From assembly GCF_013167455.1 (NCBI RefSeq), contig NZ_CP038328.1: 64,000 nucleotides of DNA; one strand, 5' to 3'. This document shows, piece after piece, positions 61,060 through 63,975 of this stretch. The stretch is from Escherichia coli O157:H7 (lineage in GTDB: Bacteria > Pseudomonadota > Gammaproteobacteria > Enterobacterales > Enterobacteriaceae). The position numbers and the translations under genes were made by a program. The notes under the pieces are model-generated. The model was not told where the DNA came from, ran no database searches, and saw only the letters and a program-made list of their open reading frames with translations. Position 1 is the first letter of the stretch. Each line of letters starts with the position of its first letter.

Positions 61060-61866
61060 ATGAAAGCATTCTGGCGTAACGCCGCGTTGCTCGCGGTTTC
61101 TCTGCTTCCCTTCTCTTCTGCCAACGCCGTAGCGTTGCAGGCAAAACAGTATGGCGATTTTGATCGCTATGTCCTGGCCCTCTCCTGGCAAACCGGATTT
61201 TGCCAGAGTCAACACGATCGAAATCGTAACGAACGAGATGAATGTCGCCTGCAAACCGAAACGACCAACAAAGCTGATTTTCTGACCGTACATGGTCTGT
61301 GGCCAGGATTGCCTAAATCGGTTGCTGCCCGTGGTGTTGATGAACGCCGCTGGATGCGCTTCGGTTGCGCTACTCGCCCAATCCCGAATCTACCAGAAGC
61401 GCGCGCCAGCCGGATGTGTTCATCGCCGGAAACCGGATTATCACTGGAAACGGCCGCTAAACTAAGTGAAGTCATGCCAGGAGCTGGCGGACGTTCCTGC
61501 CTGGAACGCTACGAATATGCCAAACACGGTGCCTGCTTTGGTTTTGATCCGGACGCATACTTCGGTACGATGGTACGCCTGAATCAAGAGATAAAAGAGA
61601 GCGAAGCCGGAAAATTCCTTGCGGATAATTACGGTAAAACAGTGAGCCGCCGTGACTTTGACGCCGCCTTTGCCAAAAGCTGGGGAAAAGAGAACGTGAA
61701 AGCAGTTAAGCTAACGTGCCAGGGTAACCCTGCGTATTTGACTGAAATTCAGGTCTCGATCAAAGCTGACGCCATCAACGCTCCGCTTTCTGCAAACTCA
61801 TTCTTGCCACAACCACACCCAGGTAACTGTGGCAAAACCTTTGTGATTGATAAAGCGGGTTATTAA
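61060..61866 (+). CDS. rna: periplasmic ribonuclease I (RNase T2 family)
   Basis: Starts MKAFWRNAALLAVSLLPFSSANA (signal peptide); 268 aa. Confidence 0.9.
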   Translation: MKAFWRNAALLAVSLLPFSSANAVALQAKQYGDFDRYVLALSWQTGFCQSQHDRNRNERDECRLQTETTNKADFLTVHGLWPGLPKSVAARGVDERRWMRFGCATRPIPNLPEARASRMCSSPETGLSLETAAKLSEVMPGAGGRSCLERYEYAKHGACFGFDPDAYFGTMVRLNQEIKESEAGKFLADNYGKTVSRRDFDAAFAKSWGKENVKAVKLTCQGNPAYLTEIQVSIKADAINAPLSANSFLPQPHPGNCGKTFVIDKAGY

Positions 61867-62012
61867 TCCTCTGATTTACAAAACACGCTAATTCGTCTTT
61901 CATAAACCATGACGATTAAGAATTATACATAATGCGCTGCATTGAGGAATTCCCTGAATGTGACGCAAATCACTTCAAAGAGTGAGCAACAGTCAGTATC
62001 ATCATGTGAGTT

Positions 62013-62047
62013 AAACCCTCGCCGCCTGACGGTGAGGGTTTTCTTTT
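62013..62047 (+). terminator. hairpin plus T-run in the rna-rnk intergenic region
   Basis: aaccctcgcc gcctgac ggtgagggtt followed by ttctttt. Confidence 0.45.
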
Positions 62048-62095
62048 GGGTATGTTTATCTGCGACACTCGCAGTACCGACGACATGGAGTAAAA

Positions 62096-62506
62096 ATGTC
62101 CAGACCAACTATCATCATTAACGACCTGGATGCCGAACGCATCGATATTCTGCTGGAGCAACCCGCCTATGCTGGTTTGCCAATCGCCGACGCGTTAAAC
62201 GCAGAGTTGGATCGCGCCCAAATGTGTTCGCCAGAAGAGATGCCACACGACGTGGTGACAATGAACAGCCGGGTTAAATTCCGCAATCTTAGCGATGGCG
62301 AAGTGCGTGTGCGCACGCTGGTGTATCCGGCAAAAATGACCGATAGCAATACTCAGCTTTCCGTTATGGCTCCGGTAGGTGCCGCACTGCTGGGACTGCG
62401 CGTTGGCGATTCCATTCACTGGGAACTTCCGGGCGGCGTTGCAACCCACCTTGAAGTGCTGGAACTCGAATACCAGCCAGAAGCTGCTGGCGACTACCTG
62501 CTTTAA
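62096..62506 (+). CDS. rnk: regulator of nucleoside diphosphate kinase (GreA/GreB-like)
   Basis: 136-aa ORF; recognised. Confidence 0.9.
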
Positions 62507-62540
62507 TCCCATCTGTACAAGCGATAACTCGCTTTGCCCA

Positions 62541-62566
62541 GAGGATGCACTCGCATCCTCTTTATG
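62541..62566 (+). terminator. hairpin after rnk
   Basis: agaggatgc actc gcatcctct followed by ttat. Confidence 0.4.
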
Positions 62567-62643
62567 CAAAATCAGCAATTTTTCCTGGTTCTCACTGTTC
62601 ACTTTTGCTGCAAAATTATTCCGTTTCGTTTGTGGGAATAACC

Positions 62644-62733
62644 ATGGCAGAAGCATTTTACATCCTGATAGGATTTCTGATTATGGCGGCGATTATCGTC
62701 ATGGCTGTCCTTTACCTCGAAAACCACTCCTGA
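62644..62733 (+). CDS. candidate 29-aa small membrane protein
   Basis: ATG at 62644 translates MAEAFYILIGFLIMAAIIVMAVLYLENHS (one predicted TM helix); GGGAA 5 nt upstream; nested in track ORF 62545..62733; ends 3 nt before the convergent ybdR stop. Confidence 0.4.
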   Translation: MAEAFYILIGFLIMAAIIVMAVLYLENHS

Positions 62734-62736
62734 CGC

Positions 62737-63975
62737 TCATATTGTTCCCCCCGGCATCGCATTCACCAGACCTGAAACCGCCTTCTGCGCCGCCTCTGCG
62801 CTTTGTGCACCGGGTACCAGAATCACCTTACGGCACTCCTCTTCACGCTTTTCAAAGATCTCATATCCCCGGGCGGCCTCTTCAAACGGCATATAGTGGG
62901 TAACAATTTCTTCTGGTTTCAGTAATCCTTTCTCAATTAACGGTAATAATTCTCCCAGCCATGCGTGAACGTGGGTCTGTCCCATTTTAAACGTCAACCC
63001 TTTATCAAAGGCGTCGCCAAACAGGAAACCGTGAATAAATCCAGCGTAGACGCCCGGTACGCTAACAATGCCGCCACGCCTGACCGCCGCAATACACTGA
63101 CGCAACGCTTTACCGCTGCTGCCCTCCAGTTTCAGGTTAGTCAGCACCGTTTCCGTGGTGCTGCCTTTCGCTTCAAAACCGACGGCGTCTATTACTGCAT
63201 CCACGCCCCGGTGACCTGCCGTTTGTTCAATAATTGACTGTGCCGGATCGCTATCTTCATCGAAATTAATCGGGATCGCGCCGTAGCGGTCAGCGGCGAA
63301 ACGCAAGCGGTAGGGATGATGATCAACAACAAAAATCTGTTCCGCACCGAGCAACCGTGCACAGGCGATTGTCAACAATCCCACAGGACCGGCACCATAG
63401 ACAGCAACGCTTGAACCTTGTTGGATCTGCGCATTTTTTGCTGCCTGCCATGCCGTTGGCAGAATATCAGAAAGGAAAAGGGCTTTATCATCTGAAAGCA
63501 AAGGCGGTACTTTAAACGGCCCCACATTCCCTTTAGGGACACGGACATACTCCGCCTGTCCACCAGGAACGCCACCATACAGGTGACTATAACCAAACAA
63601 TGCCGCGGGAGCTGGTATCTGTTTTTTATTGAGCGCAGCGCCTTTACCCGCATTGGTATTTTCGCAGGCGGCATATTGCTGCAGTCGACAGAAAAAACAG
63701 TCGCCACAAGCAATGACGAACGGAATTACCACCCGGTCGCCTTTTTGCAAATTTTTTACATCCTTTCCGGTTTCAACTACTTCCCCCATAAATTCATGAC
63801 CAAAAATATCGCCATGTTTAACCTGGGGTATTTTGCCTCGATAAAGATGGAGGTCAGAGCCACAGATCGCCGTTGCCGTTATACGCAGAATAATATCATC
63901 TGCCTGTTCAATGCCCGGATCGGGAACATTTTCTACCTGAACGTGATGTGGGCCGTGATAAGTCAATGCTTTCAT
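62737..63975 (-). CDS. ybdR: zinc-dependent alcohol dehydrogenase family oxidoreductase
   Basis: 412-aa ORF with MDR zinc-binding motifs ([15 protein letters not shown]) and GxGxxG. Confidence 0.9.

Follow-up and report, generated by a model that had tools for sequence, protein, structure and literature searches.

Modulation of a sensor kinase by a small single-pass membrane protein is a theme represented by the pairs MgrB-PhoQ, SafA-PhoQ and MzrA-EnvZ (PMC11429745). A described system close to the locus analysed here is YoaI (b1788, 34 aa), which binds and activates EnvZ. S26, V27 and E31 are the invariant residues of YoaI, and E31 is located in the cytoplasmic tail; with E31A or E31Q, YoaI no longer interacts with EnvZ in the two-hybrid assay and no longer activates an EnvZ-OmpR reporter (PMC11429745). 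A second small protein, YldA, was named and detected by means of a chromosomal C-terminal SPA tag (VanOrsdel et al. 2018; PMC6001520), and the YldA-SPA immunoblot was positive in LB cultures of E. coli K-12 in exponential as well as stationary phase (PMC6001520, Table 1 and section 3.2). Its gene, yldA, is among those upregulated in a sodium fluoride transcriptome (PMC10100675). In the literature on YldA, we found no experiment on function, partner, localisation or topology.

We analysed a stretch of 64,000 nucleotides from E. coli O157:H7 (contig NZ_CP038328.1), which we call the window. A first-pass annotation had suggested that the interval from rnk to ybdR encodes a single-helix membrane protein of 29 aa, of a kind easily overlooked by gene callers, and had left open whether it already carried a name. 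The protein is YldA. The ORF (Table 1) encodes MAEAFYILIGFLIMAAIIVMAVLYLENHS, which is identical to RefSeq WP_000796528.1, annotated "small membrane protein YldA", and to the YldA entry in Table 1 of PMC6001520. The counterpart in K-12 MG1655 is b4734 (YP_009518757.1), at 643330-643419 between ybdR and rnk; the 29-aa sequence, the strand and the position relative to rnk and ybdR are the same, and the two are one and the same gene. Residues 1-29 aligned to model positions 1-29 of NCBIfam NF041476 (YldA, equivalog; full model 29 residues) with 57.9 bits (E = 7e-16), against a curated cut-off of 45 bits. The score against Pfam PF23689 (YldA-like) was 73.6 bits, where the gathering threshold is 27. 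When the segment 62480-62800 was compared by megablast with 5,426 complete E. coli genomes, 5,422 matched, at a median of one place per genome, and the RefSeq label there is yldA. The window DNA is a 100% match to O157:H7-type strains.

Table 1. Features of the rnk-yldA-ybdR region, in window coordinates.
Feature	Coordinates	Strand	Basis and remarks
rnk	62096..62506	+	ORF list and RefSeq annotation; upstream neighbour, same strand
hairpin after rnk	62540..62561	+	fold; 9-bp stem, AGAGGAUGC / GCAUCCUCU, then UUUAUGC
yldA leader	62563..62643	+	spacer from rnk hairpin to yldA start
Shine-Dalgarno-like GGGAA, weak	62634..62638	+	read from sequence; 5 nt before ATG
yldA CDS	62644..62733	+	29 codons and TGA (62731-62733); small membrane protein YldA
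ybdR	62737..63975	-	ORF list and RefSeq annotation; convergent neighbour of yldA

Taken together, we conclude, with a probability of about 0.95, that this reading frame is yldA, a genuine gene that annotations already include and that codes for a single-pass inner-membrane protein of 29 residues. The gene was known before: the reference annotation of K-12 includes yldA, as do RefSeq, NCBIfam and Pfam, and detection of its product dates from 2018. What had been read directly from the letters was correct throughout, namely the ATG at 62644, the GGGAA upstream of it and the distance of 3 nt to the ybdR stop, and the chromosomal SPA-tagging suggested as a check had already given a positive result in the published immunoblot (PMC6001520). 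Our analysis adds no new gene. Its use lies in the evidence for selection, the independence from ybdR, the two old alleles and the link to YoaI at Glu26.

Conservation was assessed in 80 rnk-anchored loci from 80 Enterobacteriaceae species, plus two E. coli reference loci, and orthologues were sought with an HMM made from the first YldA matches. Of the 80 species loci, 34 contained a YldA orthologue, as did both E. coli reference loci. All orthologues have exactly 29 codons, start with ATG and lie on the rnk strand, and the gap from the rnk stop to yldA is 126-147 nt; in two loci, insertions lengthen it to 230 and 310 nt. Among the 36 distinct yldA coding sequences, the third codon position was the most variable, with mean entropies of 0.68, 0.50 and 1.22 for positions 1, 2 and 3. 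Pooled pN/pS was 0.39 in frame (Jukes-Cantor dN/dS 0.22); when the same alignment was read out of frame, the two values were 1.24 and 1.32. Residues M1, E3, A21, V22, L25 and E26 are invariant, I7, A16, V19, L23 and Y24 are nearly so, and the consensus is MxExLxITLxFLIxxAIIVxAVLYLERHW. Because the length of exactly 29 codons is conserved in 36 distinct sequences and the substitutions follow a coding pattern, the ORF is more than a product of chance. Judged by these substitutions, the yldA frame has been under purifying selection across Enterobacteriaceae. The cross-species comparison that had been proposed as a check thus came out in favour of the candidate, with the frame conserved across genera and the substitutions biased towards synonymous ones.

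The gene was missing in Salmonella, the Citrobacter freundii group, Kluyvera, E. cloacae and E. hormaechei, and such repeated loss implies that yldA is dispensable. In Enterobacter hormaechei (L039 3470-3530; also L034), remnants of the yldA leader follow the rnk hairpin and the ORF is gone, which indicates a lineage-specific loss of yldA by deletion.

Within the rnk-uspG interval of the 80 species loci, yldA and ybdR occurred together in 12, yldA only in 22, ybdR only in 10, and neither in 36. Since all four combinations occur, yldA is not tied to ybdR. These counts bear on a reading in which the locus acts mainly as RNA, the yldA transcript repressing the convergent ybdR through transcriptional interference or cleavage by RNase III, as in an excludon, with the ORF incidental. 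The arrangement agrees with such a role, as the two stop codons are only 3 nt apart (62734-62736) and the transcripts must therefore overlap, and ExcludonFinder lists ybdR-yldA as a convergent overlapping excludon in 50% or more of the RNA-seq samples analysed (PMC12288877). However, yldA is kept without ybdR in the 22 species loci given above and in 1818 E. coli genomes, ybdR is found without yldA in 10 species loci, and the substitutions are of the protein type, with the pN/pS of 0.39 confined to the one frame. We consider it improbable that RNA is the main product of the locus. A secondary antisense effect of yldA on ybdR is possible.

The E. coli genomes without ybdR carry a different form of yldA. 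Allele 1, which is the window type, occurs together with ybdR in 3,600 E. coli genomes, and allele 2, MSEALGITAFYIFIAAIIVAAVLYLEQRW (WP_001287361.1), which is also annotated yldA, occurs in 1,818 E. coli genomes, all of them without ybdR. The two alleles are identical at 52% of residues, with a pS of 0.75, and both keep the 29 codons and the C-terminal motif AAIIVxAVLYLE. Allele 2 scored 22.9 bits against PF23689 (local v.1 model), slightly under the threshold of 27. When the dimorphic segments were compared (window 62563-63975 and L002 6085-6380), DNA identity between the two E. coli forms ended precisely where the rnk hairpin ends on its 3' side, and the sequence of the yldA leader was poorly conserved between the alleles. 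A pS of 0.75 is far deeper than usual variation within a species and suggests horizontal replacement or ancient polymorphism. The two alleles resemble different Citrobacter lineages, and this likeness also suggests an old polymorphism or a horizontal replacement.

YldA is strongly hydrophobic, with a GRAVY of 1.69, a top 19-residue Kyte-Doolittle window of 2.97 and 22 uncharged residues in a row between E3 and E26. In the whole 64-kb window, 1 of 341 ATG-initiated ORFs of 20-50 aa reached a Kyte-Doolittle value of 2.4; this list was counted from the first ATG per frame and leaves out YldA itself, which an in-frame upstream ATG turns into part of a 62-aa ORF. Residues 4-25 would form one transmembrane (TM) helix, flanked by the invariant E3 on the periplasmic side and the invariant E26 on the cytoplasmic side. 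The tail is short and basic (mostly R-H-W) and would be cytoplasmic, as reported for YoaI. Homology to YoaI leads us to infer that the YldA peptide crosses the inner membrane once, in an N-out/C-in orientation. The window allele ends in ENHS, without the arginine of most orthologues, and for this allele the missing tail arginine weakens the positive-inside argument for the topology.

The homology to YoaI was found at several levels. Against the NCBIfam YoaI model NF041475 (equivalog), the window protein scored 22.5 bits (E = 8.7e-5), which is below the 45-bit cut-off and therefore marks YldA as a paralogue, not as YoaI. All 33 distinct YldA proteins matched NF041475 at E <= 0.01, the best at 1.2e-8, and the sole other family match of the set was SpoIIQ, for 3 members and with a weak E-value. 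Alignment of 33 YldA with 8 YoaI sequences by hhalign gave a probability of 95.3% (E = 2e-8, score 33.1) and placed YldA 2-28 on YoaI 7-33. Shuffling all YoaI columns gave scores of 8.5 +/- 2.1 (maximum 16.3), and shuffling the TM core only, while the flanks were left as they are, gave 12.3 +/- 2.6 (maximum 20.8); in each control, none of 200 shuffles reached 33.1. The reversed alignment scored 8.3. With an offset of +5, YldA E3, A21, V22, E26 and R27 correspond to YoaI E8, S26, V27, E31 and R32, so that the conserved YoaI residues, E31 together with S26 and V27, fall on residues invariant in YldA (E26, A21 and V22). On these alignments, YldA is a specific sequence relative of YoaI. The current Pfam release seems to include this link already, as the precomputed tag PF23689.3 stands on both YldA and YoaI proteins; the older local model misses E. 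coli YoaI.

The two proteins share a single TM helix between two equally spaced glutamates. They differ in that the N-terminus of YldA is 5 residues shorter and in that the genes lie at different genomic loci. In addition, yoaI is activated by PhoB, whereas yldA has no upstream Pho box, and YldA is seen in rich medium, in which YoaI is not detectable. As a paralogue, YldA may act on a partner other than that of YoaI. Each of the two genes faces a convergent neighbour tail to tail, and the stops are 0-3 nt apart. In K-12, yoaI (L083 5079-5183, minus strand) is convergent with yeaK with zero gap between the stops, compared with 3 nt for yldA-ybdR, and ExcludonFinder reports both yoaI-yeaK and ybdR-yldA as convergent excludons (PMC12288877).

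Judged by its relationship to YoaI, YldA is most likely a protein that spans the inner membrane once and modulates a larger membrane protein. It would most likely bind this larger inner-membrane protein and alter its activity, as YoaI and other small membrane proteins do, and the larger protein is possibly a sensor kinase. The best candidate partner would be a sensor histidine kinase, contacted via Glu26, the equivalent of YoaI Glu31. In its most specific form, YldA would be a second YoaI-type connector peptide, with Glu26 binding the cytoplasmic or juxtamembrane part of EnvZ or of another histidine kinase and thereby tuning a two-component system. We put this version forward tentatively and think it more probably wrong than right. 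That Glu26 acts like YoaI E31 is a concrete hypothesis for YldA function that can be tested cheaply. We likewise propose a likeness to MgrB-PhoQ, SafA-PhoQ and MzrA-EnvZ, each a pair of a sensor kinase and the small single-pass protein that modulates it; a sequence relationship of YldA to MgrB, SafA or MzrA was not detected, and the likeness is by analogy only. If the connector reading were true, the two ancient alleles, whose differences are concentrated in the N-terminal half of the helix, could act on different partners or with different strength, and the yldA locus would be a naturally polymorphic signalling modulator.

A peptide as small and hydrophobic as YldA, with its single helix, could also be read as similar to the type I toxins (cf. 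Ibs, Ldr, ShoB and TisB), which damage the membrane and are normally silenced by an antisense RNA. In keeping with this, antisense transcription from ybdR overlaps yldA (PMC12288877), and overexpression of its relative YoaI delays growth (PMC11429745). The locus, however, lacks the properties by which type I toxins such as Ibs, Ldr, ShoB, TisB and Hok are recognised, namely an antisense sRNA antitoxin and often multiple copies: yldA is single-copy in nearly every genome, with stable synteny after rnk, a dedicated antisense sRNA is absent, and a search of 61800-63000 against Rfam gave no family of toxin or antitoxin RNAs. Tagged YldA is detectable and tolerated at its native level in ordinary LB cultures (PMC6001520), and the paired conserved glutamates and the homology to YoaI favour a specific interaction over disruption of the membrane. 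We give the toxin reading very little credence.

The idea that the true product is instead a 62-aa protein, translated from the in-frame ATG at 62545, was rejected and has next to no chance of being right: such an ORF is present in the window, and 62-aa protein clusters exist in public databases (P0002-P0004; searched with a 40-aa query of YldA plus 11 upstream in-frame codons), but this ATG is itself part of the rnk hairpin, in its 5' arm, the upstream extension is unconserved in sequence and, in many loci and many species, meets a stop in frame no more than 8-14 codons upstream of the conserved ATG, and the 29-aa form is the one adopted by RefSeq, K-12 and NCBIfam.

The candidate had originally been described as lying after a putative rnk terminator hairpin. 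A hairpin exists at this position, and the 147-nt spacer that contains it folded more stably than all 200 shuffles (z = -3.2). It is uninformative on yldA, being a conserved 3' element of rnk that is kept after rnk in most of the 82 loci whether yldA is present or absent. We rejected the hairpin as part of a yldA module for the same reason, namely that it occurs without yldA, and conclude that 62540-62561 is probably the rnk terminator or a 3'-end element and is not specific to yldA. A search of Rfam gave no family match for the hairpin.

The U-tract after the hairpin is poor, consisting of just UUUAUGC. In a promoter scan, we found no plus-strand consensus sigma-70 site between the rnk hairpin and the yldA ATG, and nearby plus-strand matches lay only upstream of rnk and within the yldA ORF. 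Because a consensus promoter is absent from this interval and the U-tract is poor, transcription of yldA would probably either reach the gene by read-through past the weak rnk hairpin or start at a promoter that needs an activator. No PhoB, PhoP or CpxR boxes were found upstream of yldA; over the 110 nt that precede the ORF, the best match to the Pho box CTGTCATAWAWCTGTCAY had mismatches at 8 of 18 positions. A terminator-like match at 62681-62704, inside the ORF, was weak, with 3 GC pairs, and was taken as chance. For translation, a G-rich element (GGAA, GGGGA or GGG) is found 5' of the ATG in nearly all of the 36 orthologous loci and mostly ends 5-7 nt away from it.

The yldA leaders of Enterobacter, Lelliottia and Leclercia contain a direct repeat, CTTAAT-N5-CTTAAT, fixed at -42 to -26 from the ATG. 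The repeat is perfect in 11 loci and has one mismatch in 7 (L026, L030, L035, L040, L041, L044, L045, L049, L056, L057 and others), and it fits the published definition of the pmra-box, two XTTAAY hexamers spaced 5 nt apart. A suitable -10 element does not follow it, and it is missing from both E. coli alleles. We dropped a PmrA-type repeat as an explanation for E. coli yldA, as the repeat is confined to the Enterobacter clade and has no matching -10.

Several further observations concern rnk and the spacer downstream of it. The stem of the rnk hairpin is nearly invariant in most of the 82 Enterobacteriaceae loci (GAGGATGC / GCATCCTC, then TTT), with a variable loop of 4-6 nt, and the hairpin lies about 13-36 nt past the rnk stop (L001-L082). 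Across the 82 loci, the stem had no compensatory changes. This degree of sequence conservation exceeds the needs of a plain terminator. Upstream of rnk, the known cis-regulatory leader rnk_leader (Rfam RF01771) was matched with 124.9 bits on the plus strand of the window at 61942-62050, and it contains a terminator-like hairpin at 62013-62041. In Citrobacter amalonaticus (L018 3445-3720), the rnk hairpin is duplicated, with one copy on each side of about 163 bp inserted between rnk and yldA, and in C. sedlakii (L023 3560-3640) an insertion of about 90 bp lies inside the yldA leader. Both insertions may be small mobile or repeat elements.
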